Source: Candidatus Aldehydirespiratoraceae bacterium (lineage in GTDB: Bacteria; Actinomycetota; Acidimicrobiia; Acidimicrobiales; Aldehydirespiratoraceae). Taken from it: a stretch of 64,000 bases of DNA. The notes beneath the pieces are model-generated. The model did no database searches. It saw only the letters and a list, made by a program, of their open reading frames with translations, and had not been told where the DNA came from. The stretch lies in the NCBI GenBank assembly GCA_965243715.1, contig CBDEVU010000009.1, forward strand, positions 195,260-259,259, given 5' to 3'. Of the stretch, positions 21,268 through 45,480 are shown one piece after another. Made by a program: the position numbers and the translations under genes. How positions within the stretch are numbered: position 1 is the first letter of the stretch; every line of letters starts with the position of its first letter.

Positions 21268-21331
21268 GGGGGTGTCGCTTTGCTAATGGTTTGCTAATGG
21301 TTTGCTAATGGCATCTGGCGTCCTGGAGCGG
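21268..21331 (+). repeat. Repeat-family copy A: M motif with three 11-nt tandem units plus the first 22 nt of the body, truncated by the IS6 remnant
   Basis: GGGGGTGTCGCTT(TGCTAATGGTT)x2 TGCTAATGGCATCTGGCGTCCTGGAGCGG. Its last ~55 nt match copy B (38225..38262), apart from the extra 11-nt unit. Confidence 0.85.
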
Positions 21332-21826
21332 TATTGTCGGGGGCGGTGGTCGTTGTGGTGGGACACGAACTCCGAGAGGAGTTGGTGGAGTTGGAGCTGG
21401 TTCCAGATGAGCCTCCGATTGAGGAGCTTGTGGCGCTACGTGTACGCACTGACCGCCCACGGGCGACCCGCTGAAATCACCACCGATCTGGCTGTCGCCC
21501 TTGCTCCGCGTTATCGATGAGCCGATCTTCGAAGCTCTGCACGACACCGAGCGACATTCGAACAGCCCTATCGAGACCGGCCACGGACGACTCAAGGCCA
21601 GTCTCCGGCTCCGCGTGGACTACGCAGCGATCGCACGGCCTCGATAGTGATCCGCGGTCACGCATTTATTCAGACTCCGCGACGAGGACACCACGCTTTC
21701 GGCGTCGAAGCCCGACATGGACATTTGCGTGTCACGGCAGCGTTCGACGGACTCGCTGAAGCGATCTGACCGAGCATGGATACCAGGGCGCTCAGGCGCG
21801 GCCACCGCTCAATCAACGCAACGGTG
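21332..21826 (+). mobile_element. IS6-family transposase remnant (5'-truncated, internally deleted, frameshifted)
   Basis: WRYVYA..TAHGRPAEITTD / SNSPIETGHGRLKASLRLR / RGHAFIQTPRRGHHAFGVEARHGHLRVTAAFDGLAEAI-stop. Possible IRR ...CAACGCAACGGTGCC near 21826. Confidence 0.6.
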
Positions 21827-22155
21827 CCCTATCCGGCCCGACGGGTTGCATGGCTAGCTATTCGCACGAAGGCCATGTATGACATCGACCTATCACCCGC
21901 CATCCAGGAGTTTCGCTCCCTCCGTTACTGCCCTGGCTCGGGAGCAGGGTCATGAGGTCTCGTCGCACGGCGAGCCGGGCCCAGGGCGGCGATGGGTTGG
22001 TGCAGAAGTCGAGACACAAGTGTCAAAATCGGCCGCGTTCGCCTTGGTTTGCCTACACGCCGAGCACATTCGACCCCAGTGTCGCATGGGCCTGATCGCT
22101 CGGCTATGGTCTCGGCAGTTCCTGGAAAACACCAGGACTGGCGGAAGGAAAGATA

Positions 22156-22542
22156 ATGAAGTTGAGAATCACGCGATCAATCGCGGTGCTCGCGCTGGCT
22201 GTGTCATCGCTCGTGTCCGTGGGGGCATCGCCCGCGGCAGCGGCGTGTCCGACCGATTGGCACCGAACTCAGTACCGCTCGGCGCAGTACCGGGTATCGT
22301 TGGCACAGACGATCCCATCTTCGAGTACCTGCAACGACGTCAACCTGACCTGGGCGTCATCGCCGGGGTGGGTGTCGGGGCAGTATTACAGCGGTAGCTG
22401 GATCACCGGCTCAGCCGGATGGAAGTACGCGCCATTTGGTAGCCAGTCACCTTGGCAGGTGCTGATCAGTAATCTGTCTAACGGCACGTGGTATCGCCTG
22501 CGAGGGCAGATCTACAACCAGGTCTTCACAACCGCGGTATAG
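22156..22542 (+). CDS. Small secreted 2-Cys protein (cassette 2 lead gene)
   Basis: GGAAGGAAAG RBS. Signal MKLRITRSIAVLALAVSSLVSVGASPAAAA. Motif STCNDVNLTWA...GQYYSGSW, homologous to 10698..11093. Confidence 0.6.
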   Translation: MKLRITRSIAVLALAVSSLVSVGASPAAAACPTDWHRTQYRSAQYRVSLAQTIPSSSTCNDVNLTWASSPGWVSGQYYSGSWITGSAGWKYAPFGSQSPWQVLISNLSNGTWYRLRGQIYNQVFTTAV

Positions 22543-22596
22543 CTAACCAGGCTGCGGGGGTAGGCTCTCTCAGCGCGAACCGACTTTAAGGGATCT

Positions 22597-23532
22597 ATGT
22601 TAGGAACCTACCCCCGCCCGACCGCTGCGGCTCTACTGGTCTTTGCACGCGCGTTGCTTGCGGCGACGTTGCTGCTGTCGGGCTGCAGTTCGGCGACAAA
22701 CTCCGACGAGGCAGTAGCACTATCAGGTAACACCGATTCCGTATCAACGAACGCGGATTCTGCCGCACCAACTGACACCAACCCGACGAGAATTCGAACT
22801 GAGCTGGTGGCGGCGCTCTTCCCCGCCTCGGCACAAGACACGAAGAGCTTGGCAACACTGACCGTGTCGGAGGTCGAGCGACGAAACCTCCTAATCGAGG
22901 GATGTATGTCTGATGCCGGATTCGACTATGCCATTTTCCGCGGCGACTCTGCCGGGGATCGCTACTTCGACTTCCCTGACCTCCCCGAGATAGCCGAAAC
23001 TGGCTTTGGGCTAACCGCACCGACCGCTCGCGACACTCAGCTGAACCCGTACGACGGAGTCCCTGAGGAGTTGCGGGATCAGTTTCTCTTGGATCTCGAC
23101 CTATGCACGGCGAATGCGGTGGATGCAGTCGCAACTGACCCCGACTCAGTGTCCGCGGAGGAAGTCTTTGCGGCCGCAGCGCCCCTTCAAGACCTCTGGT
23201 TTGCAGAGATTGCTGTAATTGACAAGCTCTCGGAAGTCGTACAGGCCTTCGAAGACTGGAAGGGCTGTATGTCGGCTAGCGGCTACAACCCAACCACCCA
23301 CGTCGGTTTCTTTGTTGACGTCGACGAGAACGTGATCCCCCTTCTGGAGACGGACTTTGAGGCCGCTAGGCAGGCAGAGATGGCCGTCGCGAACACCTAC
23401 GCGCAGTGCATGGAACCGGTTGAGGCGATTAGACAGCCGATCCGCGACGATGCTAGGGCCGCCTTTCTGAGCGACTACTCAGAGGAGATCCGAGCGCTCG
23501 AGGAACTGTTCGACTCCGAGTCGGCGGGATGA
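22597..23532 (+). CDS. Secreted lipoprotein, paralog of 9811..10698 (cassette 2)
   Basis: Lipobox LLLSGC. Shared motifs GCMSDAGFDY and WKGCMSASGY. Confidence 0.6.
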   Translation: MLGTYPRPTAAALLVFARALLAATLLLSGCSSATNSDEAVALSGNTDSVSTNADSAAPTDTNPTRIRTELVAALFPASAQDTKSLATLTVSEVERRNLLIEGCMSDAGFDYAIFRGDSAGDRYFDFPDLPEIAETGFGLTAPTARDTQLNPYDGVPEELRDQFLLDLDLCTANAVDAVATDPDSVSAEEVFAAAAPLQDLWFAEIAVIDKLSEVVQAFEDWKGCMSASGYNPTTHVGFFVDVDENVIPLLETDFEAARQAEMAVANTYAQCMEPVEAIRQPIRDDARAAFLSDYSEEIRALEELFDSESAG

Positions 23533-23536
23533 CCGC

Positions 23537-27300: not shown

Positions 27301-28006
27301 GTTGGAGTTGACCCGGTTTGGTTGACACCTCGATTCTGGAATCCTTGGAGGGTTCTAGAGAGGAGTCATCATGGGAGGACATACTCGTGCGCCGTATCCG
27401 CCGGAGTATCGGGCTGAGCTTTGTTCGCCTTGTTCGTGAGGAGGGCCGGTCGCCGTCCGAGCTTGCTCGTGAGTTCGAGCCGTCGGGCCAGTCGATCACG
27501 AACTGGGTCGCCCAGGCCGAGAACCGGGTGTTGCGGATGGAGAAGGAGATTCGGGAAAAGCAGCGGCCTTCTTCGCAGCGAAGAGCCACCCGACCCGGTG
27601 AGGGTGTTTGGGTTCATCGAAGTGGAGAAGGCCAACTATCCAATCCAGATGCTGTGCCGGCTGTTGGGCGTGACCCGTCAGGGCTTCTACGCGTGGCGTC
27701 GACGTCCGCCGTGTCAGCGCCGGATCGTTGACGCGGCGTACACCGCGGTAATCAAACGCATCCACACCGAATCGCGTTGCAACTACGGAGCATCTTGGAA
27801 TCTGTGCGGAGTTCGCCGATGACTACAACATTCGCTGTGGTCGCAAACGTGTCGCCCGCCTCATGCGCTAGGCCAGCCTAGTCGGGTGTCACCGCCGCAA
27901 GAAGACGTGGACGACACGGCGCGACGACTCGCAGTCGCCGGCCCCTGATCGGGTTAACCGTGACTTCACCGCGGCTGCCCCGAACGAGCTTTGGGTAGTC
28001 GATATC

Positions 28007-29945
28007 GAGCGCCACGAGGCGTTCCCCAACCGTGCGATGGTGAAAGGACATCGCCTACAGCTCGTCGCAGCGAGCTGATTGAAGCTGAGGGCACCCTGAA
28101 CCGGGGAACGCCGGGGAGGGTGGAAGCAGCCCTGACAACGACGGGACGGGCCAGTACTGCCAGATGGTCCGGGTCCGGCTAGCAAGACGGAAAGGCGTAC
28201 GTGAGGAACCAGCGACTGAACGCTCCTCAAGAGACCCAGCGGCTCGAACCTGGTGGATCTGGGCTGTGTAGCAACGCGCACCCGCATGGCTTTGCTGTGC
28301 GGGGAACTCTCCGGTTGGGTGATGTCGCTGACCGGGAGGCCATGGTGAATGTCTGCGGTGTAGCCGTGGCGATGTTGCAGGGGAATAGCTGGGCGCCGAC
28401 CCCGTCGAATGGTTGGAGAGTGAACGTGGGAACCATCTTGTCGGTCCCGTCACCGGCCAGCAGCCTGCTGGTCGGCGGGAAGGTCCGTTGTCGGCTGATG
28501 CTGACGAGATGGGGCGGAGGACCCGTAGTAGTCCGAGGCCGGGAAAGCCGGTCACATGGCGAAGGGGTCCAGTGTGTTTGCAGCGGAACTGCTGATCCTG
28601 GCCGTTGCTTTGATGATGTGTTCAACCTCGTGTATGACCCGGCGTTTCTCACCGTTGCGTGGCGTCGGGTGCGGGGCAACAAGGGGGCACGAACTGCCGG
28701 AGTCGATGGAGTGACACCTCGCTCGATCGTCGCCGGTGTCGAGTCGATGTTGAACGGGCTGCGAGATGATCTCAAAGCCCGCCGGTATCGACCCAACGGG
28801 TGCGACAAAAGATGATCCCGAAAGGGGGCGGCAAGGTCCGTTCGCTGGGGATCCCGACTGTTGCAGACCGGGTCGTGCAGTCCTCGTTGAAGCTGGTGCT
28901 CGAAGCGATCTTCGAGGCGGACTTCAAGCCGTGTTCCTACGGTTTCCGCCCGAAGCGCCGAGCCCAGGACGCGATCGCTGAGATTCACTACCTCGGATCA
29001 CCCAACAGGAACTACCACTGGGTGTTCGAGGCAGATATCAAGGCGTGCTTCGATGAGATCGACCACACCGCCCTGCTGGGGCGGGTGCGAGATCGTGTCG
29101 GAGACAAGCGTGTTCTGGGTTTGGTGAAGGCATTCTTGAAGGCCGGTGTTCTCACCGAGGACGGCAGTCGACGAGCAACGATCACCGGCACACCCCAGGG
29201 CGGGATCCTCTTGCCGTTGTTGGCCAACATTGCCCTGTCCATCCTCGACGAGCACTTCACCCAAAAGTGGGAGAACCTCGGCCCGGAATGGACTCGTGTG
29301 AAGCGTCGCCGTGCCGGGGAACCGGTCATGAAACTTGTCCGCTACGCGGACGACTTCGTGGTCATGGTCCACGGAACCCGCGAGGATGCCGAAGCGCTAT
29401 GGGATGAGGTCGCGGCGGCGCTCGCTCCGATGGGTTTGCGCCTACCCCTCGAAGAAGTCATTGGCTTCGATCGTGGACAAGGTGCGGCGGTTGACCCGCC
29501 GAGCACAACATCGAACGCTCGCAGATCTGCTGCGCCGGCTCAACCCGGTGCTGCGGGGCTGGTGCACCTACTTCCGTCACGGAGTGTCGAAACGGATCTT
29601 CGGTTACATCGATCACTTCGCGTTCTGGCGCGTTGTCGGGTGGCTGAAGAAACGACACCTCGGACTGAACATGCACACCCTGGTTCGTCGCCACCTCCCA
29701 GGCTGGGAGATCAGCGACAACGGGATCGAAATGTTCAGGCCCAACCGGTTCGCCGTCGTGCGCTACCGATACCGGGGCACCAAAATCCCGACACCATGGA
29801 CAAGCGCAACCACAGGACAAACCGCACCAGCGGCATGAACACATGGAGAGCCGGATGCAGTGAAAGCTGCACGTCCGGTTCGGAGGGCGGGCCGCAGAAA
29901 CCCACCAGCAGAAACGCTGACAGGGCGCTGCGGTCCGACCCCTAC
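28007..29945 (+). mobile_element. Group II intron (defective) inside IS3 orfB
   Basis: GTGCG at 28032. 34-nt domain V GAGCCGGATGCAGTGAAAGCTGCACGTCCGGTTC at 29848..29881 (AGC triad, GAAA loop). Ends ...CCCCTAC at 29945. Contains the RT ORF. Exact 5' end lies between 28007 and 28032. Confidence 0.8.
28498..29838 (+). pseudogene. Group II intron reverse transcriptase/maturase, frameshifted with an internal deletion
   Basis: FNLVYDPAFLTVAWRRVRGNKGARTAGVDGVT; frameshift near 28795; RSLGIPTVADRVVQ, GFRPKRRAQDA, TPQGGILLPLLANI, YADDFVVMV. Then a jump (~45 aa missing) into the X/thumb frame SKKSLASIVDKVRRLTRR...LRGWCTYFRHG. Confidence 0.75.
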
Positions 29946-30451
29946 ACCTACGTGCCAACCTGGTCCGGGTTCGGCTACCTCGCCACCGTGCTCGACGTGT
30001 TCAGCCGCCGCATCGTGGGCTGGTCCTACGCCACCCACATGCGCACCGAGCTCATCATCGACGCCATCGACATGGCCATCGAAACCGGACGTCCACCCCG
30101 CGGTTTGATCCATCACAGCAACCAGGGAGCCCAATACGGAGCCATCGATTTCGGGCGAAGATGCCGCCGCGCTGGGATCGTGCTGTCGATGGGATCGGTG
30201 GGTTACTGCTACGACAACAGCATGACCGAATCGTTCTTCGCGACCCTCGAGTGCGAACTATTCGACCAGACCCGATTCCGCAACCACACCGACGCCCGCA
30301 CCGAAATCATGAGCTTCATCGACTGGTACAACCATCGCCGCCGACACACCCGCCTCGACAACCAATCACCCGTCCACTACGAACTACACCACCAACCCGC
30401 GGCTCACGCCGCATAGCCACCCGGTGTCAACCAAACCGGGTCAGCTCCAAC

Positions 30452-30916: not shown

Positions 30917-32381
30917 CTAGCCCGGTTGTTCTGCGAGAATCGATCGGCGTCGAGCGGCTGCCTTCAGTTCCGCCATCGCCCAAGTGAAGCTCGGATGCGA
31001 GAGAACGGCAGCCTCGCAGTCTTGCTGCGTAGCGCCCAGTTCGAAGAGCACCAGACTCCGGATGATCCAACGAATTGCCTCTGCGAAGAAGTAGCGCTCG
31101 GGCGTTTGAAGGGCTCCCCTAGATCCGTGTGAGAGTCCGCCCCTAGTGCTCGCCAGCATTCGAGCGAAATCTGCTTGAGCGTCGATGACGCTTGCCCCGA
31201 TTCCTCCTGAGTGATCGACGAGGTTCTGGATCTTCTCCTTGAGCGTCTTGTCGTTCCGGGCGCGGAGCAGAGCTTCGGCCCACTCGCGGTCGTCGGAGTT
31301 GACCCCAGCGCTCTGCGAGCGCAGCGACCACCTGTGCGACCCGTTGCTTGTGCTCTGGCTTCGACTTCTGCTTGCCGTCGCACAGTGCCCGGTGGGTGGC
31401 CTCGGCGCTCCAAAAGGAGCTGACGAATCTGAACTCATCGAAGATAAACGATGAGCGGTATGGGGCGCTGAGAGTCGTAATCGCTGGGCCTAGATCGCCG
31501 TTAAGAAGTGCGAACCAAGCTGGCAGCAGTTGGTCGAAACTCAACGGCCCTTGTCTGGCGTGGCGATCGAGAAAGCGGTCGGATGCAACCGTTTGATGGT
31601 GGCTGGGAGGTTGGACGAAGTCTGCGACGAGCCAGACGTCGGGTTCCCGCTCGTCCGAACCTGCCACTCTCAGACTCATCGACTCGAGCCGCACGCTGTG
31701 AGCAGTGAGCAGGACCATGAGGTCCCAAAGCGGACCCAGAAATCGCTCGCCGATTGATTCAAATGAGGATGGCGATTGGAGCAACACATCGAGAGTGACT
31801 ATTCTCTCGAGTTCGACACGAGACGGACCGGCGACCCCTACTGTTCGCGCGGTCAATTCCACGGTCGCGTCGGCGAGGTCTGCCGTCTCCAAAGTCACTT
31901 GCCGGATCGGGCCCTCGCTACCCCCCTCGTCGTCGAGTATCGATGGCGTCGGTCGCCAAGCTGAAAGACAGTCGAAGCAAAACGACACCGATTCGAATAG
32001 GTCGGTGGCGTCGAGATGACCACCGACAATAACGCCCCGAACTGAGTACGTCTCAGTACCACCGACGACGGCCTCAAATGGCTGCTGGAGCACCAGACCG
32101 TTGGCGTCGAGAACTGTCAGCATCTCCTCGCCTTCGGTGCGGATGGCGGTGCCGTGAACCACCGGATACGAGACGCGTGTTGTGGAGGCGCGAATGGCAA
32201 CCGTGTCTGAAAGTTCCAGCGGTGCGAGCTGGCCGCAAACATTGAGGCGAATACCTTCGGGTGATCGCCTTAGCGTGCCAGCAACACGGTGGTCGGGCCG
32301 TTGAGGCAGCCAGAACGTCCCGGAGACGTCCAATGCGTCGACGTCATGTGCTCTGGTTCTGCCGTTTGACTCGTTGAGCAT
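30917..32381 (-). pseudogene. ApeA-like N-terminal domain plus HEPN protein gene, one frameshift near 31305
   Basis: 412-aa frame is good to ...KQRVAQVVAALAE. The 173-aa frame continues SAGVNSDDREWAEALLRARNDKTLKEKIQNLVDH...MLASTRGGLSHGSRG (Rx4H) ...FFAEAIRWIIRSLVLFELG. Confidence 0.55.
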
Positions 32382-32522: not shown

Positions 32523-33446
32523 CTAATCGATGACTCGGTACATTGCACTTCCGGTTTCTGCGGCGTGGCGGCGCTTTCGTTCGAGAACTTCGTCGAAAGC
32601 GACCCTGCCTTCGAGAATTGGGAAGAGGTCGGAGCCGTCCATGAGGATGAGCGGTGTCTGCGGTTGCGAGTGTTGCTGGACAGCTCCGTCAGTGAATCCT
32701 GAAACCGAGACACACAGGCCGAGCGTGTTTCGTGCCTTGCCGTCGACCTTGACTTTGAAGTCGTTGACTTCCTTCGGCCCGAGTGGTGCGGTCCACCATC
32801 GCGCTTCGAGGATGTAGTGGTCGGTGTGGAATGTGAATGCGCCGTCGACTTGTTCGTGGTCGAGGGTGTAGGCGGCGCGGGGGTTGAGGTCCCATAGCTC
32901 AAAGAGTTGGTTGAGAAATGATTCGAACTCGTAGCCCCGAGCATGCGGGTCTTCGGATGATTGATGCATGGCCAAGAAGTGTTGCCGAAGCTCGTCAAGT
33001 CTTTTCTCGTGTAGCTGTTGGGCGGCGCGCCTCGTGATGGCTTCGGCTGCTTCGTCGCGTGCGGCCTGGCGTGATGCCGCGAGTTCTGAGTATTGCTCGG
33101 TGACCTGTTGGACCACGTGGAGCGCATGGACGGCCTCGGCGACCTTTTCGGCGCCGTCCTCGAGACGTGCCAGATGGGGGAAGTCCGGGTCGACTTCAGC
33201 GAGTGCAATGAGGGCGTCGATCACTACTCCTTGATGTTTCTGCTCGTTGAGACGGAGGGCCATGATCAGCTGGCTCGTTGCTTCGCGCTTGGTGCCGTCG
33301 AAATTCACGCGGGTGATGGCCTCGGGTGCGTCGACGAAGCGGGCTCGTACGAGGGTTTGGAAGTCGTTCTTGTACCAGTGATATGTGCGGAGCGCGTCGG
33401 CGAGCGCGGTCCATGCGGTTTCGGTGAGTTTCTTGAAGGCTGTCAT
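32523..33446 (-). CDS. Mrr-like restriction endonuclease-domain protein with helical N-terminal domain; third gene after gajA/gajB
   Basis: ARGYEFESFLNQLFELWDL...EQVDGAFTF..HYILEARWW...GLCVSVSGFTDGA (Mrr_cat-like pattern, E-A-R in place of E-x-K). ATGA overlap with the gajB stop. Confidence 0.6.
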   Translation of the reverse strand: MTAFKKLTETAWTALADALRTYHWYKNDFQTLVRARFVDAPEAITRVNFDGTKREATSQLIMALRLNEQKHQGVVIDALIALAEVDPDFPHLARLEDGAEKVAEAVHALHVVQQVTEQYSELAASRQAARDEAAEAITRRAAQQLHEKRLDELRQHFLAMHQSSEDPHARGYEFESFLNQLFELWDLNPRAAYTLDHEQVDGAFTFHTDHYILEARWWTAPLGPKEVNDFKVKVDGKARNTLGLCVSVSGFTDGAVQQHSQPQTPLILMDGSDLFPILEGRVAFDEVLERKRRHAAETGSAMYRVID

Positions 33447-35065
33447 GTCGTGGGTTGCTCGCTGGAATAGTGCCGGAGAGGTGCGATGAGGGGGTGTGGC
33501 TGCTCGCCGAGAATGATGGTGACGTGGCTCCTTGCTCGGGTCAGGGCCACGTATAGGAGGCGGGAGCTAGATTCGTAGGGTTCCGAATCGCGACCGAAGT
33601 ATTCGCCGTCGCGAAAGACGAGGATGGTGGCGTCCGCTTCTCGCCCCTTTGTCTGGTGCAGGTTCATGACTTGCACGGGCCCCCGTGCGTCTTCGTTGAT
33701 ACCGACGAGTGAGTTGGCCCCGTTCTGCTCCAGACCGGCTCTCGTATCGTCGATCCAGGAATTGCCCGTCCGCGAGGGGTGCGAGGCGGCGGTCGCTTTG
33801 AAGACTTCCGCGGCGCGGGCCCACTGCTGGTTTCCGGTCGTGATCCCGAGGCGCGGCCAAATCTCAGCCGCTAGCTGCAACGCCGCTACTGGTTCATCGC
33901 AGGCATCGCAGTCGGCGGCCAGCTCTGCTAGGCGTGCTTCCACAGCTGCGGGTCGGGGTTCGTTCCCGCAGAGCATCCGTGCGAGGCGCGGCGGTTCCTT
34001 CGAGCGACTGAGGGATGCGGCGAGTACACCAAGGCGAAACTCGACCGCATCCCAGGTTCGCAGGCCGTAGATGTAGCTGAGGCTTTCTACCATTACCTGA
34101 AGGGATTGACCGAACGCCTCGGGAAATCCGACAGCGACGTTGGCCACGCCGCACGATGTCAGGTTTGCCGACAGCTCCGCCGCGGGGCCGTTGCCGTGTA
34201 CGTAGATTCCAAACGAGGCATCGCCGTGACCCTTCCGGATCGCGATCGTGTCGGCGACTACCTGACCGCTGGCGTCGAACGAAACGCCTGACAGGACTGT
34301 TAGGCGATTCTGGTTGATCGCTGTGGAGACTTCCGGCACCTCGAATTGTCTCTCGCGGATCTTGGCGGCTGCGGTTGGAAGTATCTGTGAGGGGTCGCGG
34401 TGTGACGCGGGCTGGAGTTGGACGATCCGGGCTTCGGGCCGAGCCAGCGCCGCGCTGAGGCGGTGTGCGCCGACGCCTGCTACAAAGCCGTCGTAGATGA
34501 GCTGGTGGGGGTCGGCCAGGAGCAGTAGTCGAGCTGGGGGAGCGAGGCATTCGATGAGCTGCCAGTGATCGTCGCCGGTGTCTTGGAATTCGTCGCAGAT
34601 GATCATTGGCCAACGCTCGGTGAGGAGTGAGCGAACGAAGTCGTTGGTGAGCACTCGTAGGCAGCCGGGGAGGAGATCGTTGAACCGAAGTGCCGGCCCG
34701 TCGTTGGCGCGCATGCGCGCCTCGGCCTCCCCGATGAGCGGAGGTGGGGTTGGGCCGAATCCTGCGTATTGGCCGAAGTCCATGATCATCCGGTAAGCGA
34801 ATCCGTGGAACGTCATGATTTCGACGCGGTCGTCGAGGCTATCGAGTACCGGTCCCGCACGATCAAGGATTTGGGCTACTGCGGTGCGGGAGAATGTGAG
34901 GAAGAGCACTCGTTGGTGGGGGGCGGCTCGATGTTCGATTTCCGCCCGGGCCGCGTAAAGCGCTGCGGTCGTCTTGCCAGTCCCGGCGCTCCCATACGCG
35001 ATCAACGTGGGGTCCATTGAGTTGACTATCTCGTTTTGGGTGTCCGTGAGCTGCGGACCTTTCAT
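33443..35065 (-). CDS. gajB: UvrD/PcrA-like SF1 helicase, Gabija GajB-like
   Basis: GSAGTGKTT, MIICDEFQDT, LHQTKGREADATILVF, LYVALTRARSHVTII. 4-nt overlap with the upstream OLD-family gene. Confidence 0.8.
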   Translation of the reverse strand: MKGPQLTDTQNEIVNSMDPTLIAYGSAGTGKTTAALYAARAEIEHRAAPHQRVLFLTFSRTAVAQILDRAGPVLDSLDDRVEIMTFHGFAYRMIMDFGQYAGFGPTPPPLIGEAEARMRANDGPALRFNDLLPGCLRVLTNDFVRSLLTERWPMIICDEFQDTGDDHWQLIECLAPPARLLLLADPHQLIYDGFVAGVGAHRLSAALARPEARIVQLQPASHRDPSQILPTAAAKIRERQFEVPEVSTAINQNRLTVLSGVSFDASGQVVADTIAIRKGHGDASFGIYVHGNGPAAELSANLTSCGVANVAVGFPEAFGQSLQVMVESLSYIYGLRTWDAVEFRLGVLAASLSRSKEPPRLARMLCGNEPRPAAVEARLAELAADCDACDEPVAALQLAAEIWPRLGITTGNQQWARAAEVFKATAASHPSRTGNSWIDDTRAGLEQNGANSLVGINEDARGPVQVMNLHQTKGREADATILVFRDGEYFGRDSEPYESSSRLLYVALTRARSHVTIILGEQPHPLIAPLRHYSSEQPTT

Positions 35066-36786
35066 ATCTGTTTCAGCCCCTTTTCTCCGTTCAGTACCGA
35101 GTTGATGACGCCCGCCAGGACCTTGACAACGAGAGCGGGCACAACCCTCTCCGGCAGAGCGTCGACGAAAGCTTGGTGGAGGCCGCCACTACCGGATTTC
35201 AGTATGTGGCTGATGGCATGACGCTCGAGTTCTGGCCGCTCCATGCCATCGGTCGACGGTACTTTCAGCTCGAATCCTCGGGCGACAGCAGTGAGAGCAG
35301 AAGCGATGTCGTCATCGTTGAGACCGTCGAGAAGCGCCCGTTCGATCGCCATTCCGAGAGGTAGACGAAGGACGACATCGCAATTCGCTTCTAGAAGGCT
35401 GAGTGCGCGTGCGGCCTCAGCGTCATCCCGATCCCAGTCGAGGATCCCAACAGTGACGAAACCGAGGCCTCGTGCGAGCGCAGTTACCTTCCACATGTGG
35501 TCCTTGCCGCCGCCGTCGACGAATTCGATCCGGTGAGCGATGGGCGGTGATGAGCCGTCGATTGACTCGAGGCGTCTGCTGACAGCATTGAAAGACGAGA
35601 CGTCGTGTGGGCCCTCGCAGACGACGACAGAGCGGGCCGTCATCGCGGGGAGGAGCTGTAGCTGGAAGTGACGCGTGGCACCGCGGGTGGTCTTGTCTCT
35701 TGTTCGATCGGGCTGGTGGCAAGCGCGATTGGCGCCTTGCCCAGTGAGGCGGACGAGATCCTCTACTGCGAACGAGCGCGCGACCTCAGGTCTGCGGGTG
35801 GAGACCCAGGCTTGGCCGACCTTCTGCCGGAACAGCGATGCCAGGCGGGCGCTAGCGGGGCCATCCAAGCCATCCCCGAAGTCATCCACCGCGACGACTG
35901 CGTCGCCGCTGTGGGCCCACCAGATCGCCTCAGAGGTCGAGAGCAACGACCGAAGCGTGGATCCGTGTCGGTGGAGCGGCAGGTGTCCCGCTCCTTCGCC
36001 AAGATCCAGGGCCGCAGTGAGGCTGCGGAGAAGGCCACTAACTGCACCCCCTTCCGGTAGAAACCTCACAACCTTGGAAGCGTCGGCGTCCAGTCCGAGT
36101 GGTTCCCGCAAGGAGCTGAGAACCTGATCGAGGCCGGCCACGATGGCGGGATCGGCAGATAGTTCGGCAGAGAGACCATCAACTCCGTCAGCGAGTCGCC
36201 GGATGGCTTCGAGCACGTCCTCGCTTCCACTGGACTCGAGCATTGCTCGAAAATCACCTTCGGAGCGGACCGCCAGAGGCTCGCGCTGTCGAATCGCTCG
36301 GAACGGGAGAGCGACTCGGTCGTCACGCGCTACGCGGTTGGCGTTTGCCCCAGAATTGGCAAGACGCTTGACATACTCGACGCGCTGTTCGCCGCGTTCC
36401 TCAATATGGTCCCATGTACAGGTCCAACGAAGCCGCAGGGCTGGCTCGTGGTCGGCAACGTCGCCTGTCAGATCAGCCGCTTCCACGATCTGACCAACCC
36501 CTGGATCCCACGGTTCGAGCCTGCGAAGGAATCGTTGTCGTAGGGCCTCGTCTAGATCCGTAAGTGTCACCTCGATTCGGACTTCCCGATCCAGGTCACC
36601 GCCATGAAAGTCCCACTCTCGGACCTGCCAACGAGTCGCATCCACATGAAGGACTCGCTCCAGAGCCAATATCACGTCGGATCGGCCGGCCCGAGGCTCG
36701 CCCACCAATGCGACATGCCCTCTTGGGCGTATCACTATCGAATCGAAACCGCGAAACCCATCGATGTATAACTCTTCAACCCGCAC
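35062..36786 (-). CDS. gajA: OLD-family ATPase-Toprim nuclease, Gabija GajA-like (class 2 OLD)
   Basis: 574 aa. N-terminus LYIDGFRGFDSIVIRPRGHVALVGEPRAGRSD (divergent P-loop). C-terminal Toprim VVVCEGPHDVSSF ... GILDWDRDD. Confidence 0.75.
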   Translation of the reverse strand: MRVEELYIDGFRGFDSIVIRPRGHVALVGEPRAGRSDVILALERVLHVDATRWQVREWDFHGGDLDREVRIEVTLTDLDEALRQRFLRRLEPWDPGVGQIVEAADLTGDVADHEPALRLRWTCTWDHIEERGEQRVEYVKRLANSGANANRVARDDRVALPFRAIRQREPLAVRSEGDFRAMLESSGSEDVLEAIRRLADGVDGLSAELSADPAIVAGLDQVLSSLREPLGLDADASKVVRFLPEGGAVSGLLRSLTAALDLGEGAGHLPLHRHGSTLRSLLSTSEAIWWAHSGDAVVAVDDFGDGLDGPASARLASLFRQKVGQAWVSTRRPEVARSFAVEDLVRLTGQGANRACHQPDRTRDKTTRGATRHFQLQLLPAMTARSVVVCEGPHDVSSFNAVSRRLESIDGSSPPIAHRIEFVDGGGKDHMWKVTALARGLGFVTVGILDWDRDDAEAARALSLLEANCDVVLRLPLGMAIERALLDGLNDDDIASALTAVARGFELKVPSTDGMERPELERHAISHILKSGSGGLHQAFVDALPERVVPALVVKVLAGVINSVLNGEKGLKQI

Positions 36787-36801: not shown

Positions 36802-38082
36802 TCATCGTGGCCCTTGTGGCCCGGATCTTGGGTGTGTCTCCGACGGCCGGTGCCATAGGGTGCTGGCCGGTAGGGCCCAAATTCGATCGTCGAGTTGGAA
36901 TGGGATCGGTCCTGTGTAGATGATGGCTCCGTAGTGGAACGCGTCTCCTAGTTTGTCTCGCAGCCAACGCAGGCCCTTTGCGTCGTGATGGTCGACTTGG
37001 GTTGAGGATTTCACTTCGAGCCCGACGATCTGTCCGCGTCTTTCGAGAACGAGGTCGACCTCGTTGCCGTCGCGATTTCGAAGGTGGAATAGTTCGGTTG
37101 GGTGTTCAACTGTTTCGATGTGGGTGCTCAGCTCGGTGGCGACGAACGTTTCGAAGAGCTGACCGACGAGGGTGGCGTCGCGTTCAAGGGCTGCGGTGTC
37201 GAGGTTGAGTAGATGCGTGGCAAGTCCGGGATCGGCGATGTGGATCTTTGGTGATCGGTTTAGCCGCAGAAGGCGTTTGGTGTGCCAGGCCGGTACTCGG
37301 ATGATGATTGAGAGGTCCTCGAGAAGTGTGATGTAGTTGTCGGCGGTGCCCTTGGCGACGTCTGCATCGCGGGCTGTGGCCTCCTTGTTCAGTTCCTGCG
37401 CGGTTCGGGCGACGCATGATGTCAGCACGGCCCGCAGCTTTCTTGGCCGTGGGTTTGAGCCCGCTACTTGTGCTGCGTCTCGGTCGACGAGTTGCTCGAT
37501 GTAGCTATTGAACCAGCGTGAACGGCCTCGGTCGGATCGTTGGACAACGTCGGGGAATCGGCCGGCGACTATTCTGTTGAGGTAGTCGTGCCGGTTGAGG
37601 TCGGAGCGCCCGAAGCTCGGGGGTTCGTCCGCGAAGAAGGCGTCAATGGGGTTGTAGGTGTTGTTGTGTTCGAGTTCGCCTTGGGTCAGCCCGAACATCC
37701 GCACCCGAATAAGTCGTCCTGTGCCTGGCCACGTTGCAGCTTGATGGGCGGCACGCACTGAACCTGTCACGATGAAGCGCCCAGCGACCCCCGAGAGGTC
37801 TGCATCGATGGCACGCTTGACGGCCCCGAGAATCTCCGGCGATTCCTGCCATTCGTCGATCAGTACCCGTCCTGGAGCATTGGCGAGGATGCCGTCGGGG
37901 TCTTCCTTGGCCGCTGTCCGCACGCCGGGGATTGACAAGTCCAAAACTGTGTCCGCGAACTGGAGCATCGAGGTTGATTTCCCACAACCACGGGGGCCCA
38001 CGAGCAGGACGGCCGGGAACTCAGGTAGGAGCTCGTCGGCTATCAGGCGATCGACGACGCGGGGAAATAGGCGCTGAACCAC
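36802..38082 (-). CDS. COG1373-type AAA ATPase with DUF4143-like C-terminal PD-(D/E)xK-like region
   Basis: VLLVGPRGCGKST Walker A, VLIDEWQ Walker B, C-terminus LRNRDGNEVDLVLERRGQIVGLEVKSS. Ends 15 nt before the gajA start. Confidence 0.75.
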   Translation of the reverse strand: MVQRLFPRVVDRLIADELLPEFPAVLLVGPRGCGKSTSMLQFADTVLDLSIPGVRTAAKEDPDGILANAPGRVLIDEWQESPEILGAVKRAIDADLSGVAGRFIVTGSVRAAHQAATWPGTGRLIRVRMFGLTQGELEHNNTYNPIDAFFADEPPSFGRSDLNRHDYLNRIVAGRFPDVVQRSDRGRSRWFNSYIEQLVDRDAAQVAGSNPRPRKLRAVLTSCVARTAQELNKEATARDADVAKGTADNYITLLEDLSIIIRVPAWHTKRLLRLNRSPKIHIADPGLATHLLNLDTAALERDATLVGQLFETFVATELSTHIETVEHPTELFHLRNRDGNEVDLVLERRGQIVGLEVKSSTQVDHHDAKGLRWLRDKLGDAFHYGAIIYTGPIPFQLDDRIWALPASTLWHRPSETHPRSGPQGPR

Positions 38083-38212
38083 CCCAGAAGCTTACCGCAC
38101 CGCCGCACAAGTTGACTGATATGCGGAGCGGTAATTGACCGATCTGCGGAGACCGAACTGTCTGATCGGACGAATGAACACTGAGCGGCGTACCTGACAT
38201 GGCGGTGAATCA

Positions 38213-38379
38213 GGGGTGTCGCCGTGCTAATGGTTTGCTAATGGCATCTGGCGTCCTGGAGCGGCATCTAGCGGTAGAGAGCGGTTTTGGTGGTCGCTGG
38301 ATGCCGCTCAGGGACGCTGGTTACCGCAGGACGACGCCCGATGCCTGGTGGGGGAGGGGAAGTCCCCCCTCCGACACCA
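38213..38379 (+). repeat. Repeat-family copy B: M motif plus structured body with tRNA-end-like 3' part (possible ncRNA)
   Basis: GGTGTCG (38215..21) pairs with CGACACC (38372..78), followed by A. 38243..56 pairs with 38329..45. 10-bp GAGCGGCATC (38259..68) / GATGCCGCTC (38300..09). GGAGGGG/CCCCTCC hairpin at 38353..72. Confidence 0.6.
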
Positions 38380-38426
38380 GCACAACCCCTGGAAACAGTG
38401 GGCACAACGGGCGAAAAACGGCTGCA

Positions 38427-38460
38427 GGGGTGTCGTTTGCTAACGGATTTGCTAACGGCA
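38427..38460 (+). repeat. Repeat-family M motif, second copy at locus B
   Basis: GGGGTGTCGTTTGCTAACGGATTTGCTAACGGCA. Confidence 0.85.
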
Positions 38461-38726
38461 GCCAAACCACCGTCCCGAACCGGCCTCGAAACCGCTGCCT
38501 GCTGCAGCATTCCGCCCTGGTCAGAGCGACGCCTACAGCACCGAGCAGTCGCGGGCAGCAGCGGCGCGCTTCCACCACACCGTGGGGGAACGCGCCGGCA
38601 GCGGCGACGCGAGCTGCGGTCCGCACGACCGCGCGCCCCGGATCAAGCCGGTCGGGTCCAGCGGGAGTAGGTAATCGGGGAGCGAGTGTCCCAGCGGCAC
38701 CGCAGCGTGCCCCACAGGAACCCTTC

Positions 38727-41859: not shown

Positions 41860-42543
41860 CGAAACTTTCTCCTTCGTGCGACGCGACAGCCGCCACCTGC
41901 GGCACCACATCGATCCTGAACGGAACACCCCGACCCCGCTACCGGCCCAACGTCCAGTTCCACCAGTACTTTTAGCCGGGTATCAATGGCAGCGACTGAA
42001 AGGCACAGGCGGAGCGTCTGAGTCTTGGCTGCACGTCCGCGCAATGCGATGCTGCATCGGCCATTGCTCGCGATGAATCGAGGGAAGCGAGCATCCAACC
42101 GTTCGGTGTTGACCCAACACTGGCCTCGCCACGCAGAGTTTGCCTACGGGGGCCGATCACGATAGCAGTACCCGCGAGCGCCGTGCAGCTCCACCCAGAT
42201 CGCACGGTCATCCTTGACGAGGTCGCCGCAAGCGCGCTGACGTTCAGTCTCGGCGGGCCAGCGAGTTCACCGGAGATCGTGGATGCAGGGACAAGGCGTC
42301 CATCTCAATGACGGCAACCTGTCACCCGCCACGTCTATGGTTGGTCCGTGGATCACGCTGCACACCCGATCCCAGACTCGGGAGCCACCGGGTGTCGCTA
42401 ACATCACGCCGTCAGCGAAATCGAGTCAGCTCCAGTCCTGGTTGAGGGGTCGGTTGGTTTGTCGCCTGCGATGGTGCGCGACGCGACGACATGGTTGCGT
42501 ATTCGCAAGCAATGGTGTTAGTGGTCAGTCGTACTATTGGGGC

Positions 42544-43239
42544 ATGGCTAGATGCACAGCTCCGGTACAGGGACATCGCACAGAAAGCGGCGCAGCCGCA
42601 TGCCCGATGCACGGCGGAAGGTCCACGTATGGGGATTACTCACAGCGTTCCTACTCACCTGTCTCTCGATCGCCGACAAGTAGGACAAGAGCGAGCGGTG
42701 GGACCGGGCCAGCAAGACGCGCAACGCGGCCGACGTGGTCACCGAGCAACTCCGCTGTCACTTACACCGCCGACCAGGTGCGGGCGCTAACTTCTTATCG
42801 GCGCGCAGTTGAAGCCCAGGGTCAACTGCCCGAACTTCGAGACCTCTTCCTCTGCCATGCATGGGACGATCGGCGCGATGCCGCTACGGAGTTGAGTGAC
42901 CTGCTCGAAGCTGAAGGCGTGTCGGTCTGGTTTAGCGAGAAGGACATCCTGCTGGGTCAGCCGTTCATGCGAGAGATCGACAGAGGTTTGGCGAAGTCGC
43001 GGGCTGGTCTTGTCCTCGTCACCCCTGCGCTCCTGGAGCGCGTCAGCAACCGGGGGATCTCTGACAAGGAACTCTCAGAGCTTCTGGCACGCGACCAGCT
43101 CATTCCCGTTGTGCACGGAACGACCTACGACGAAGTTCGGAAAGTCAGCCCCTTGCTGGGTAGTCGAAACGGGTTGGACACTGCGGAGGATTCGATGACA
43201 ACCATTGCCGTCAAGATCGCCGAACTGGTCAACCTCTAA
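42544..43239 (+). CDS. TIR-domain protein (start uncertain; N-terminal ~70 aa low-complexity)
   Basis: LRDLFLCHAWDDRRDAATELSDLLEAEGVSVWFSEKDILLGQPFMREIDRGLAKSRAGLVLVTPALL. Confidence 0.65.
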   Translation: MARCTAPVQGHRTESGAAACPMHGGRSTYGDYSQRSYSPVSRSPTSRTRASGGTGPARRATRPTWSPSNSAVTYTADQVRALTSYRRAVEAQGQLPELRDLFLCHAWDDRRDAATELSDLLEAEGVSVWFSEKDILLGQPFMREIDRGLAKSRAGLVLVTPALLERVSNRGISDKELSELLARDQLIPVVHGTTYDEVRKVSPLLGSRNGLDTAEDSMTTIAVKIAELVNL

Positions 43240-43270: not shown

Positions 43271-43440
43271 GGGGGGTCTCGTTTTGCTAACGGATTGCTA
43301 ACGGCAGCCTGTGTCGTGGAGCTGTAGGGGAGTGCAAGGAGCGGTTTTCGGTCGGACTTAACGCCGCTGGATGCCGGATCCCGCCGCTTGGTGCCTCTGG
43401 GCGCAATGTTGAGTGGGTGAGTTCAAGTCCCCCTCCCACA
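43271..43440 (+). repeat. Repeat-family copy C: M motif plus diverged body ending in a T-arm-like GAGTTCAAGTCCCCCTCCCACA
   Basis: GGGGGGTCTCGTTTTGCTAACGGATTGCTAACGGCA..., shares GAGCGGTTTT..., CGCTGGATGCCG with copy B. Confidence 0.6.
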
Positions 43441-43481
43441 CTTTTTGCATAAGCCCTGGTCAGAGGGTGTGTGCGGCCGGA

Positions 43482-43513
43482 GGGGTGTCGTTTGCAGTTG
43501 GATTTGCTAGTGC
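43482..43513 (+). repeat. Repeat-family M motif, second (degenerate) copy at locus C
   Basis: GGGGTGTCGTTTGCAGTTGGATTTGCTAGTGC. Confidence 0.75.
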
Positions 43514-44636: not shown

Positions 44637-44839
44637 ACTAGATGCCTCCGCATGGACCAAGCAGTGCACCCGAGACGTGACGGTGCCGAAAACTCGTCTG
44701 TGTGCTCTGGCCTGGGTTTCGCGGGATGCCAGTCGAAAGCGGTGGCGCTGGAAGAACTCCAAGTATTTGATCTACTGATCTTAGGCATGCTGATTTCAAG
44801 GCACGACAGGGCATTCGCCCCCCCCAAGTCTGACCCCAT

Positions 44840-44873
44840 CCAACGGCCGTCAACATATGTTGACGGCCGTTGG
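44840..44873. promoter_or_regulatory. 34-bp perfect palindrome (candidate operator or cruciform)
   Basis: CCAACGGCCGTCAACAT|ATGTTGACGGCCGTTGG read directly. Lies ~70 bp upstream of the 44942 mini-ORF. Confidence 0.6.
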
Positions 44874-44941
44874 CTTGTCGGTAGTCTGTGGATGTGGACA
44901 TCGAGACAAGCGCTCGCAAAAATGGTGTCTCGGACAAGGAC

Positions 44942-45046
44942 ATGATTCACGCACTACGACATCACCGGAGGGCATTCGAGACTGACGACCCGGCTGTAAC
45001 CATGGTCGATCGCCCGAAGTTTCTGAAGGGAGGGTGGAACAAGTGA
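44942..45046 (+). pseudogene. Truncated toxin-like mini-ORF (34 aa)
   Basis: MIHALRHHRRAFETDDPAVTMVDRPKFLKGGWNK. From memory it resembles the two ends of a small actinobacterial toxin family, with the middle missing. Confidence 0.3.
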
Positions 45047-45306
45047 CGAACACACGCGCTCAGCGCGCCGAGGCCCTTGAGGCCTGGACGGACAGGGTTG
45101 ACTCCGCTGAGTTGAGAGAAGCAGATACTGAGACGCTGAGAGCGATCGCAGAGTTGGCCGAGACGCGTAACGCCGTAGAGGAGCAGTTGACAGACGCCGT
45201 GCGTTCCGCCCGCCATGCCCACCGCACTTGGTCGGAGATCGCGACGATGCTGGGCGTCTCTAAGCAAGCCGCGCAGCGCAAGTACGGCCCCAAGATCCCC
45301 GCATAG
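45034..45306 (+). CDS. Small HTH protein, antitoxin-like (alternative GTG start at 45043)
   Basis: Coiled N-terminus then HRTWSEIATMLGVSKQAAQRKYG. GGGAGGG RBS. Confidence 0.5.
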   Translation: MEQVTNTRAQRAEALEAWTDRVDSAELREADTETLRAIAELAETRNAVEEQLTDAVRSARHAHRTWSEIATMLGVSKQAAQRKYGPKIPA

Positions 45307-45316
45307 CCCAAGCCGA

Positions 45317-45480
45317 GGGGTGTCGCCCTACTAGTGGTTTGCTAACGCTGTGTTTGAGGGCGATCCGGGAACCTGTGGGGAAGGTCAGCGCTAGGCGATT
45401 TCGTGCGACTTTCTTTCGTTTTGCGTTGCTCTCGTCGCCTGGGTTGCCGCTTCGTGGAGCGATTAGCCGCGAAAACTTTC
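45317..45480 (+). repeat. Repeat-family copy D: degenerate M motif plus diverged body
   Basis: GGGGTGTCGCCCTACTAGTGGTTTGCTAACGC, then CTGTGT..CTGTGGGGAAG..GCGATTTCGTGCGACTT..TGCCGCTTCGTGG, alignable by eye to copy C. Confidence 0.5.

Follow-up and report, generated by a model that had tools for sequence, protein, structure and literature searches.

The mycobacteriophages L5, Giles and CrimD have heterobivalent tyrosine integrases that target tRNA or tmRNA genes and follow the lambda Int paradigm (PMC3203893). The cores of their attachment (att) sites are identical to the T-arm and 3′ terminus of a tRNA-type gene and are flanked on either side by pairs of 11-bp arm-type repeats, which are direct in L5 and Giles. 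The integrase gene is situated beside the site with a small excisionase-type HTH gene adjacent, and the sequence of the arm repeats varies with the integrase N-terminus (PMC3203893). These properties are shared by the repeat family described here.

The family was noticed in a 64-kb stretch of DNA, the whole of which is termed the window. A sequence-only reading of it offered three explanations for the repeats: att scars from serial integration, a non-coding RNA family, or operators or iterons of a distant protein. The first is the one supported, by the tRNA-Leu 3′ end present in full copies and by the gene order of related loci. With a probability of roughly 0.85, the repeats are the attachment-site DNA of Acidimicrobiales islands that target the 3′ end of tRNA-Leu genes by means of a heterobivalent tyrosine integrase. 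The mechanism is ordinary and the family undescribed: the att family was not found in Rfam, in phage or plasmid collections, or in the searched literature. The remark that no described element has this sequence therefore holds for the att family but not for the kind of element, which is well known. To our knowledge, no integrative elements have been described in the Acidimicrobiales, which are mostly uncultured.

Repeat sites in the window

All six sites previously listed are present, on the plus strand and intergenic, at a frequency far above chance. The GGGGTGTCG sequence starts at 21269, 38213, 38427, 43482 and 45317, and a degenerate form, GGGGGGTCTCG, at 43271; the count of GGGGTGTCG in the window is 6 vs 0.94 expected. 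TTGCTAAYGG is found eight times (0.06 expected), on the plus strand only and confined to the repeat sites. The 11-nt spacing of the arm repeats is as first described. The motif as then spelled fits the first copy but not the others, and those at 43271, 43482 and 45317 are degenerate.

An nhmmer profile of 170 positions, built from 38 full copies, was run against the window. It aligns end to end at 38213–38377 (E 6e-46) and 43273–43441 (E 6e-23), and partially at 21269 (56 positions, 67 nt), 38427 (38 nt) and 45317 (31 nt). A body of 130–170 nt had been assigned to three copies; it is present in two (38213 and 43271) but not at 45317, where only the 31 nt align. Truncation of the first copy at about 21335, beside an IS6 remnant, is supported by an IS6-type transposase fragment at 21446–21766. 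The sequence-only reading had overlooked that the core derives from a tRNA, that full and short forms differ and that the body is missing at 45317. In all, the window contains two complete junctions and two truncated P arms, with the following features.

21150–21262, plus strand: frameshifted HTH gene remnant, homologue of 45034–45306 by DNA alignment and translations; cargo end of the leftmost module, ending 12 nt before the P arm
21269–21335, plus strand: truncated P arm (profile positions 1–56, E 1.6e-12) with GGGGTGTCG (21269–21277), three TTGCTAATGG (21280, 21291, 21302) and the onset of the periodic region; remainder of arm and core absent
21446–21766, plus strand: IS6-family transposase fragment, just past the truncation point of the first P arm
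38213–38355, plus strand: complete P arm (profile match 1–170, E 5.9e-46; alignment) with GGGGTGTCG, GTGCTAATGG at 38224, TTGCTAATGG at 38235, then about 105 nt in which 10-nt units (AGCGGYA / TRCCGCT) form inverted arrays
38356–38377, plus strand: core, a copy of the tRNA-Leu 3′ end aligned with six genuine tRNA-Leu genes; GGGGAAGTCCCCCCTCCGACAC, made up of T-loop, T-stem 3′ strand, acceptor 3′ strand, A and C, with a 5-nt deletion in the T-loop part
38378–38426, plus strand: linker from core to P′ module, with a AACCCCTGGAAACAGTG box
38427–38464, plus strand: P′ arm module (short form), GGGGTGTCG and TTGCTAACGG at 38437 and 38449
43273–43441, plus strand: second complete P arm and core, diverged (profile 1–170, E 5.7e-23), with GGGGGGTCTCG, TTGCTAACGG at 43284 and 43295, ending GAGTTCAAGTCCCCCTCCCACAC; diverged core at about 43419–43441
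43442–43481, plus strand: linker with a CCCTGGTCAGAGGG box (43454–43467)
43482–43513, plus strand: degenerate P′ module, GGGGTGTCG TT TGCAGTTGG ATT TGCTAGTGC
45034–45306, plus strand: intact HTH gene, 90 aa, ending ...WSEIATMLGVSKQAAQRKYGPKIPA; cargo or accessory gene
45317–45347, plus strand: truncated, degenerate P arm, GGGGTGTCG CCC TACTAGTGG TT TGCTAACGC, without body or core; nhmmer alignment limited to profile positions 1–31 (E 1.3e-3)

The IS6-family fragment resembles an IS6-like transposase fragment of locus L013 (tblastn, 54% identity over 112 aa, E 6e-25). The P arm at 38213 displays 10-nt periodicity, an inverted repeat and a hairpin (z = -4). That at 43273 begins 32–34 nt past the stop codon of a ThsB-like TIR gene (42283–43239), and the P′ module at 43482 lies 40 nt past the core, matching the other junction of the window. 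The copies at 21269 and 45317 each lie 12 nt past the stop of a small HTH gene; the two genes are homologous, and one is frameshifted. DNA homologous to this gene precedes P arms in four other loci (L005, L024, L045, L048). The HTH protein encoded at 45034–45306 has no family match in Pfam, NCBIfam or PADLOC.

A tRNA-derived core between two arms

The parent unit of the repeats is a recombination junction of about 250 bp. Its full form, of about 170 nt, consists of GGGGTGTCG, two or three copies of TTGCTAATGG, about 105 nt with 10-nt periodicity and a 22-nt tRNA-Leu end. The short form contains GGGGTGTCG and two TTGCTAAYGG, and is found 40–60 or about 180 nt beyond the full form. Arm-repeat pairs flank the core, about 150 nt before it and 40–60 or about 180 nt after it. 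The full copies have exactly the same two ends, and their flanking DNA differs. Lag-10 identity in the P arms is 0.41–0.47 vs 0.27 in shuffles.

The 22-nt block, GTTCAAGTCCCCCCTCCGACAC, is common to full copies and six tRNA-Leu genes, and similarity is lost upstream of the T-loop; the full-copy profile also matches the 3′ ends of genuine tRNA-Leu genes. The order found in other genomes, namely intact tRNA-Leu, short form, integrase, cargo, full form, identifies the full form as P arm with core, and the short form as the P′ arm belonging to the next island. The P′ module at 38427–38464 is the left end of the next module. Its counterparts are situated between tRNA-Leu and integrase (L175), beside an integrase (L174, L018) or after tRNA-Leu (L025). 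The linker at 38378–38426 is homologous to DNA that follows the genuine tRNA-Leu in L025 and a full copy in L018, and the CCCTGGTCAGAGGG box likewise occurs 3′ of genuine tRNA-Leu genes in L013, L036 and L175.

Related loci and their integrases

The family is present in about 40 Acidimicrobiales genomes and is co-oriented at every locus. A strict pattern matched 53 loci, nearly all from Acidimicrobiales or Acidimicrobiia, where about 0.13 chance matches are expected from pattern degeneracy and collection size. Genomes carry one to five strict matches, and in the 18 multi-site loci all 28 additional sites agree in strand with the first site. Seven tRNA genes are found in the 53 loci; five encode tRNA-Leu, and all five are upstream of the copies and co-oriented with them. 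An intact, co-oriented tRNA-Leu gene is seen at L001, L013, L025, L036, L040, L058 and L175. In L025 the short form lies 60 nt past tRNA-Leu and is separated from the full form by 5.2 kb of cargo, and L001 is alike; in L013, L036 and L040, 1.5–4.6 kb separate tRNA-Leu from the full form.

Integrase-bearing loci were located independently of the DNA pattern. L175 has the order SecG, tRNA-Leu, a 38-nt linker, GGGGTGTCGTTTGCTAACACTTTTGCTAACGCC, an integrase on the opposite strand and an HTH_17 gene. L174 encodes a full-length integrase and an HTH_17 gene, with the short module at the contig end, and L018 has an integrase remnant directly 3′ of the short form. In L058, tRNA-Leu and a P′ arm are followed by a converging integrase, and in L008, L051 and L173 a tyrosine integrase lies within 2–3 kb of the sites. 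A recombinase near other copies, which the sequence-only reading had proposed to look for, is thus found: a tyrosine integrase adjoins the P′ arm in L018, L174, L175 and L058. The integrase domains are Phage_integrase, a SAM-like core-binding domain and Arm-DNA-bind_4. The latter scores 22.1 bits in the L008 integrase, just under the Pfam cutoff of 22.3, but is recorded for many integrase homologues and is present in the L175 fragment.

Integrases of clade A (L008, L051, L058) pair with two copies of GTGTCG-CT-TGTCATCA and those of clade B (L018, L173–L175) with two TGCTAAYGG; the core is the same in both. Since the repeat sequence changes with integrase clade, the 11-nt repeats are best read as putative arm-type integrase sites, and the earlier remark that they resemble such sites is supported. 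As the core has arm repeats before and after it and the integrase has an arm-binding domain, the attP appears to be heterobivalent, i.e. of the lambda/L5 type.

Probable serial integration of islands

At related loci an integrated island shows the layout core, linker, P′ arm, integrase and Xis-like gene, cargo, P arm, next core, and the integrase and Xis-like gene, where still present, are on the opposite strand. A newcomer island would integrate into the tRNA gene and push older islands outwards. The resulting array would read tRNA, island n, P-core-P′, island n-1 and so on, and each seam would be an attP-like junction of about 250 bp in a single orientation. The 11-nt repeats would be bound by the N-terminal domain of the integrase, the periodic interior may be where an arm-bending excisionase or architectural protein binds, and strand exchange would take place within the 22-nt block. 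Accretion is seen directly in one case: a 1.55-kb module that is directly at tRNA-Leu in L013 recurs, at 95% identity, in L006 behind the arm and core of another island. The homology breakpoint is the start of the core.

The window can be looked at as a probable decayed array, with a P arm at 21269, junctions at 38213–38464 and 43273–43513, and a P arm at 45317. Between the seams are defence modules, namely Gabija, PDC-S01, ApeA and Mrr, then the ThsB-like TIR gene, then the HTH module. There are no tRNA genes in the 64-kb window or in the 3.9 kb left of its edge, and a six-frame profile search of the window found neither a tyrosine integrase nor a fragment of one. We infer the mechanism at the window locus from the related loci. 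The locus would thus represent a defence island assembled by repeated site-specific insertion, with seams that are still readable. The signature of P arm, 22-nt tRNA-Leu core and P′ arm may serve to delimit mobile defence and toxin-antitoxin modules in Acidimicrobiales, and should spare annotators from mistaking the unit of about 170 nt for a new RNA gene.

Nineteen modules in the fetched loci are bounded by two sites (18 of 1.5–5.9 kb and one of 16.9 kb). A tyrosine integrase is missing from 18 of these, and their P arms are near consensus. As tandem units with an att site at either end and no recombinase, they fit tandem accretion of cis-mobilizable elements. The integrase-less share exceeds what is expected from simple decay of autonomous islands, a point against the main reading. 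A tentative possibility, itself rather doubtful, is that the integrase-less modules of 1.5–6 kb are working cassettes and not dead islands, which a clade-B integrase and Xis excise, capture and reshuffle in trans at tRNA-Leu. The genes for integrase and Xis would lie at another genomic site or arrive with a new island, and the P arm, core and P′ arm would be kept near consensus because the modules are mobilized in trans. This would represent an integron-like exchange of defence genes by a lambda-type, arm-dependent recombinase, so far in Acidimicrobiales only. If mobilization in trans is true, the modules would form a naturally occurring cassette exchanger that works through an arm-dependent tyrosine integrase.

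The cargo of integrase-less modules includes toxin-antitoxin, Abi, TIR and other defence genes.

Alternative explanations

The repeats might instead encode small structured RNAs of one family, akin to tRNA or tmRNA. Such an RNA would be closed by a GTGTCG/CGACAC stem and would contain UUGCUAAUGG as a single-stranded repeat, together with a long hairpin and, at the 3′ end, a domain resembling a T-arm. In its favour, the two ends can pair over 6 nt, a T-loop sequence is at the 3′ end, sequence conservation is strong across many species, and one window copy folds better than shuffles (z = -4). However, the second window copy does no better than shuffles (z = +1), and minimum-energy folds of individual sequences agree on the terminal stem only, with interior pairing that is out of register by 10 or 21 columns. 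RNAalifold yields a weak consensus (-19 kcal/mol, covariation term -0.5, compensatory changes in 2 of 31 pairs), and the missing covariation already weakened this proposal. There is no Rfam match at gathering or permissive thresholds, ARAGORN calls none, the T-loop part is the duplicated tRNA-Leu 3′ end, and short and truncated forms are located exactly where att arms are expected. An RNA gene family is highly improbable; this suggestion of the sequence-only reading is not upheld, as there is no consistent fold, the tRNA-like end is a duplicated tRNA fragment, and the Rfam search it had advised gave no family that explains the repeat. It is very unlikely that the repeats act as operators, iterons (both suggested earlier) or centromere-like sites of a regulator or partition protein. 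The tandem units do have helical-turn spacing, and the small HTH protein is a candidate: its gene ends 12 nt before two window copies and is directly 5′ of the P arm in six loci. Yet this protein has no family match, genes upstream of most copies are unrelated, a search for Rep or Par genes found none, and the repeats flank a tRNA-derived core at fixed distances with a sequence that tracks integrase clade. A distant protein is not needed, as an integrase with an arm-binding domain adjoins the sites in other genomes.

The full form also partially resembles a non-autonomous transposon (MITE or foldback) spread intergenically, with 6–9-bp terminal inverted repeats GGGGTGTCG ... CGACAC. Sharp ends, inverted-repeat termini (6 bp), a palindromic interior and several copies per genome fit this description. 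On the other hand, the flanks have no visible target-site duplication, no transposase is consistently close by, copy number is low (1–5 strict matches per genome), copies within a locus are co-oriented (28/28), the 3′ terminus is a tRNA-Leu fragment and copies queue behind tRNA-Leu genes, all of which makes such an origin extremely unlikely. Hardly credible is an integron-type cassette array in which the 170-nt unit, folded as a single strand, would recombine in the manner of attC. It would account for co-oriented units that each follow short cargo (1–3 genes), often toxin-antitoxin or defence, and for the imperfect palindrome inside the unit, but its defining features already fail: GTTRRRY-type R″/R′ boxes are absent when sequences and consensus are read, and there is no IntI-type integrase, the enzymes present being arm-binding and phage-type with an adjacent Xis-like gene. 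Moreover, the end of the site is a piece of a tRNA gene, and arrays begin at tRNA-Leu genes.

Comparison with known systems

The proposed serial island integration at tRNA-Leu differs from the mycobacteriophage systems in its Acidimicrobiales host, its tRNA-Leu target and the conserved GGGGTGTCG before each repeat pair. In addition, the P arm here has a 105-nt, 10-nt-periodic palindromic interior, and the elements are small islands with defence or toxin-antitoxin cargo that no phage or plasmid record matches.

The ssrA islands of Dehalococcoides also form tandem arrays after one small-RNA gene, with 3′-end direct repeats between islands; insertions fall in the T-loop region, and the integration module, which many members lack, is on the reverse strand beside attL (PMC3146451). 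In Dehalococcoides the enzyme is a serine recombinase and the repeat is 20 bp (PMC3146451), whereas about 170 nt plus 35 nt are conserved per seam here because integration relies on a tyrosine integrase with long arms. Unlike the Dehalococcoides islands, the array of the window is detached from the tRNA gene.

Prochlorococcus tycheposons similarly integrate at the same tRNA and push older elements deeper, and their islands share the trait of fragmented integrases and partial tRNAs scattered within (bioRxiv 10.1101/2020.12.28.424599). They differ in phylum and in their integration and replication modules; replication or capsid-interference genes were not seen here. With integron attC arrays the family has in common co-oriented sites after short cargo that is rich in toxin-antitoxin and defence genes, but it is without IntI, R/L boxes and attI, and its site contains a tRNA fragment and arm repeats. 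Judging by its relatives, the family would recombine as double-stranded DNA with the aid of accessory arms, unlike integrons.

Repeat sites and their distribution

Five sites on the + strand of the window begin with GGGGTGTCG (at 21269, 38213, 38427, 43482 and 45317), and a sixth, at 43271, has the degenerate start GGGGGGTCTCG. Each start is followed by two to three TTGCTAAYGG units with 11-nt spacing. This unit is present eight times in the window, always at these sites, against an expectation of 0.06; GGGGTGTCG is present six times versus 0.94 expected. The repeat sites noticed in the sequence-only reading are real, and its tandem 11-nt unit, repeated two to three times, is found at all six. 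The shared + strand start also holds for all six, but the motif as literally written there matches the first copy only.

Matches of the window to a profile of 38 related full-length copies are listed here.

21269-21335, + strand, truncated first copy (profile positions 1-56)
38213-38377, + strand, full copy, end to end (1-170)
38427-38464, + strand, short form (1-38)
43273-43441, + strand, full copy, end to end (1-170)
45317-45347, + strand, copy without body (1-31)

Three copies had been thought to carry a homologous body, but only those at 38213 and 43273 match end to end, and the number is therefore two; the copy at 45317 lacks it. The first copy was correctly seen to be cut near an IS6 remnant, as the match stops at 21335 and an IS6-type transposase fragment (21446-21766) lies directly beyond.

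With one genome per species and a strict pattern, for which ~0.13 chance matches were calculated, 53 loci were found, nearly all from Acidimicrobiales or Acidimicrobiia (loci in other contigs or genomes are designated L001-L175). Complete Acidimicrobiales chromosomes with copies include OZ244202.1, OZ244195.1 and OZ220497.1. The copies share two sharp ends, the start GGGGTGTCG and, ~170 nt on, the finish ...GTTCAAGTCCCCCCTCCGACAC, and their flanks are unrelated on either side. The short form consists of GGGGTGTCG and two repeats only, and comes after full copies, with the two starts about 210-230 or 350 nt apart. Additional sites are co-oriented with the first site of the locus in 28 of 28 cases (18 loci). 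BLAST of the junction gave no match to plasmids or phages, the motif had 0 matches in viral contigs, and plasmid matches to the 25-kb region were limited to IS, intron and TIR pieces. Literature searches on the motif string and on Acidimicrobiia with integrons found nothing relevant.

A tRNA-Leu core

The full-copy profile also matches the 3' ends of genuine tRNA-Leu genes at five loci. When full copies are aligned with tRNA-Leu genes (alignment A4), a 22-nt identity block comprises G53, the T-loop, the 3' strands of the T-stem and acceptor, the discriminator A and one C; upstream of the T-loop the two differ in sequence. Thus the unit's tRNA-like end is a duplicate of part of tRNA-Leu, the hallmark of att junctions. 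Site geometry agrees with this. Two loci, L025 and L001, have the order tRNA-Leu, linker, short form, 5-6 kb of cargo and full form, and three others (L013, L036 and L040) have tRNA-Leu, 1.5-4.6 kb and full form. The sequences 3' of genuine tRNA-Leu genes, which include a CCCTGGTCAGAGCG box, in some cases a LexA-box-like palindrome, also follow the core of full copies.

This palindrome, TCGAACAnnTGTTCGA, is directly 3' of the core in L014, L017, L031 (after 7455), L037 and L044 (after 2255), and 3' of the genuine tRNA-Leu in L040. It resembles the actinobacterial LexA (SOS) box, and hints that some islands at the tRNA-Leu site may be SOS-regulated. The linker between core and P' arm has a recurrent ~143-nt insertion (L047 3926-4097, L044 6064-6230, L031 2530-2690, L020 650-830 and L006 2590-2800), which accounts for the two core-P' spacing classes, 40-60 nt and about 180 nt. 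Direct repeats of CCCTGGTCAG border this insertion, and an inverted copy of the tRNA 3' end (GTGTCGGAGGTGGGAC) lies within it. In L006 (760-810) and L029 (2880-2933) the same tRNA-Leu core is joined to a different arm sequence, GGGTGGGGTG.GGGTTAAGGGTT, which probably represents the P arm of a further island family with this target.

Integrases beside the sites

There is no recombinase in the window, and tyrosine integrases were found at related loci. In L018 an integrase remnant lies on the opposite strand directly after the short form, and in L008 and L051 full-length relatives are 2 kb downstream of full copies. A second search started from proteins instead of the DNA motif. Homologues of the L018 fragment led to three loci. 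L175, on a 565-kb contig, has SecG, tRNA-Leu, a 38-nt linker and GGGGTGTCGTTTGCTAACACTTTTGCTAACGCC, then an integrase encoded on the opposite strand and a gene of the HTH_17 (excisionase-type) family; in L174 the integrase is full-length and accompanied by its HTH_17 gene, and the contig ends in the short module; in L173 an integrase occurs with an ISL3 insertion and a full copy. Catalytic, SAM-like core-binding and arm-DNA-binding domains are present in these integrases. The only close relative from the metagenome scan is on contig L058, where a 62%-identical integrase converges on a tRNA-Leu gene that is followed by GTGTCG-CT-TGTCATCACGG-TGTCATCAGA. Viral contigs had none closer than 31% identity.

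The integrases form two clades that share one tRNA-Leu core. Clade A pairs with TGTCATCA repeat pairs and clade B with TGCTAAYGG pairs. GGGGTGTCG, conserved ahead of both repeat types, is the inverted complement of the final six core bases. Because the repeat sequence changes with the integrase clade, which is the best available argument, the 11-nt units are candidate arm-type sites, in agreement with an earlier remark on their resemblance to such sites. Many close clade-B homologues (database proteins P0002-P0041) are C-terminal fragments of 130-250 aa, and L175 has its integrase gene in two parts, an arm-binding one of 46 aa and a catalytic one of 175 aa. Pseudogenes of the integrase thus seem to be frequent at such sites.

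Modules and array formation

The window sites separate defence modules, with an ABC transporter and IS/intron debris also among the modules.

ApeA/PDC-S58 (PDC-S58/ApeA-like protein at 31143-32381, PADLOC), Mrr and Gabija (33443-36786)
36802-38082, PDC-S01 candidate defence ATPase (PADLOC E 5e-118)
42283-43239, ThsB-like TIR protein (PADLOC E 4e-97)
further right, CBASS

No ThsA was found next to the ThsB-like gene. Helicase and HTH pseudogenes lie at the end of the module that the arm at 21269 closes, and the P arm and core at 38213-38377 close the Gabija/PDC-S01 module. The linker and P' at 38378-38464 open the module that ends in the ThsB-like gene and the P arm and core at 43273-43441. Next, a small module begins with the P' module at 43482-43513 and runs to the HTH gene and, at 45317, the truncated P arm.

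A 90-aa HTH gene (ending ...SKQAAQRKYGPKI) stops 12 nt ahead of the P arm at six places in different genomes: window 45034-45306 and about 21150-21262, and L005, L024, L045 and L048. The protein has no family match in Pfam, NCBIfam or PADLOC, and may represent either cargo that recurs or an accessory factor in recombination. At window 27900-30416 a group II intron appears to have entered an IS3 transposase gene, with both read as a single open reading frame: IS3-family transposase DNA is at about 27993-28585, the sister-contig product of ORF 28800-30416 has reverse-transcriptase and rve domains, and an Rfam group II intron domain match (29846-29945) falls within this ORF. A type III restriction-modification module (633-5926; ResIII helicase 345-3413, methylase 3394-5511) is precisely missing from L054 and L056, sister contigs of the same metagenome sample. 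It has no att copy at its borders, and is therefore a strain-level indel by another route.

An island unit has linker and P' at the left, cargo, and the P arm at the right, bounded by cores. A newer island would insert into the tRNA gene and displace the older module behind its own arm and core. This predicts what is found in L013 and L006. In L013 a 1.55-kb module lies directly at tRNA-Leu; its 95%-identical copy in L006 stands behind another island's arm and core, and homology begins at the core. At seams in L008, L012, L022 and L045 a TGCTAATGG-type P arm is followed by a TGTCATCA-type P'; each such seam connects two different islands and does not form one functional unit.

Among modules bounded on both sides in the fetched loci, 18 of 19 have no tyrosine integrase, yet many such modules retain near-consensus arms. 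Mobilization in trans as cassettes is therefore a live, if rather unlikely, possibility.

The window array is unattached to a tRNA-Leu gene: the window has no tRNA gene, and tRNA-Leu is also absent from the 3.9 kb to its left. Of the same-sample sister contigs L054-L057, only L057 spans the seams and it has the same arrangement; none has a tRNA-Leu gene within reach. Since remnants of IS6, IS3 and IS256 are found, it is plausible that rearrangement separated the array from tRNA-Leu.

Alternative readings

The sites were also proposed to be a small ncRNA family. At gathering thresholds Rfam finds only a group II intron, elsewhere in the window, and no family explains the copies; 38100-38700 and a better copy in L044, scanned permissively, give chance-level matches only, and ARAGORN calls nothing at the copies. 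The RNAalifold consensus is poor and covariation almost nil. Individual minimum-energy folds share just a 5-bp terminal stem, interior pairs slip by 10 or 21 columns, and shuffled sequence folds at least as well as the second window copy. These findings argue against an RNA. The P-arm interior consists of inverted arrays of 10-nt units (AGCGGYA left, TRCCGCT right), with identity of 0.41-0.51 at lags of 10 and 20 nt versus 0.27 in shuffles. The 10-nt pattern would suit proteins bound on one DNA face, and an excisionase or architectural protein may shape the arm there.

A mini tmRNA- or retron-like RNA was suggested by the GGGG start, by stop codons in each of the three frames and by the T-loop; recognition of the 3' end as a copy of tRNA-Leu spoke against it. 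Integron attC, MITE and curated RNA family were rejected as well, as the defining features of each failed.

The proposal of att scars from serial integration is borne out by the tRNA-Leu core, site geometry, adjoining integrases and L013/L006 accretion. We consider it highly probable (about 85%) that the mechanism is ordinary site-specific integration and tandem accretion, here in a family of Acidimicrobiales not yet described.

Relation to described systems

In anatomy the sites match attP of actinobacteriophages that use tyrosine integrases. Phages L5 and Giles have arm-repeat pairs in direct orientation, and arm sequences vary among related integrases (PMC3203893). The arrays match the tandem ssrA islands of Dehalococcoides, 15 of which have no integration module and were proposed to be cis-mobilizable elements brought together by accretion (PMC3146451). 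They also match Prochlorococcus islands, in which incoming elements push older ones inwards, leaving partial tRNAs and integrase fragments (bioRxiv 10.1101/2020.12.28.424599). The family is therefore new, but of a kind already known.
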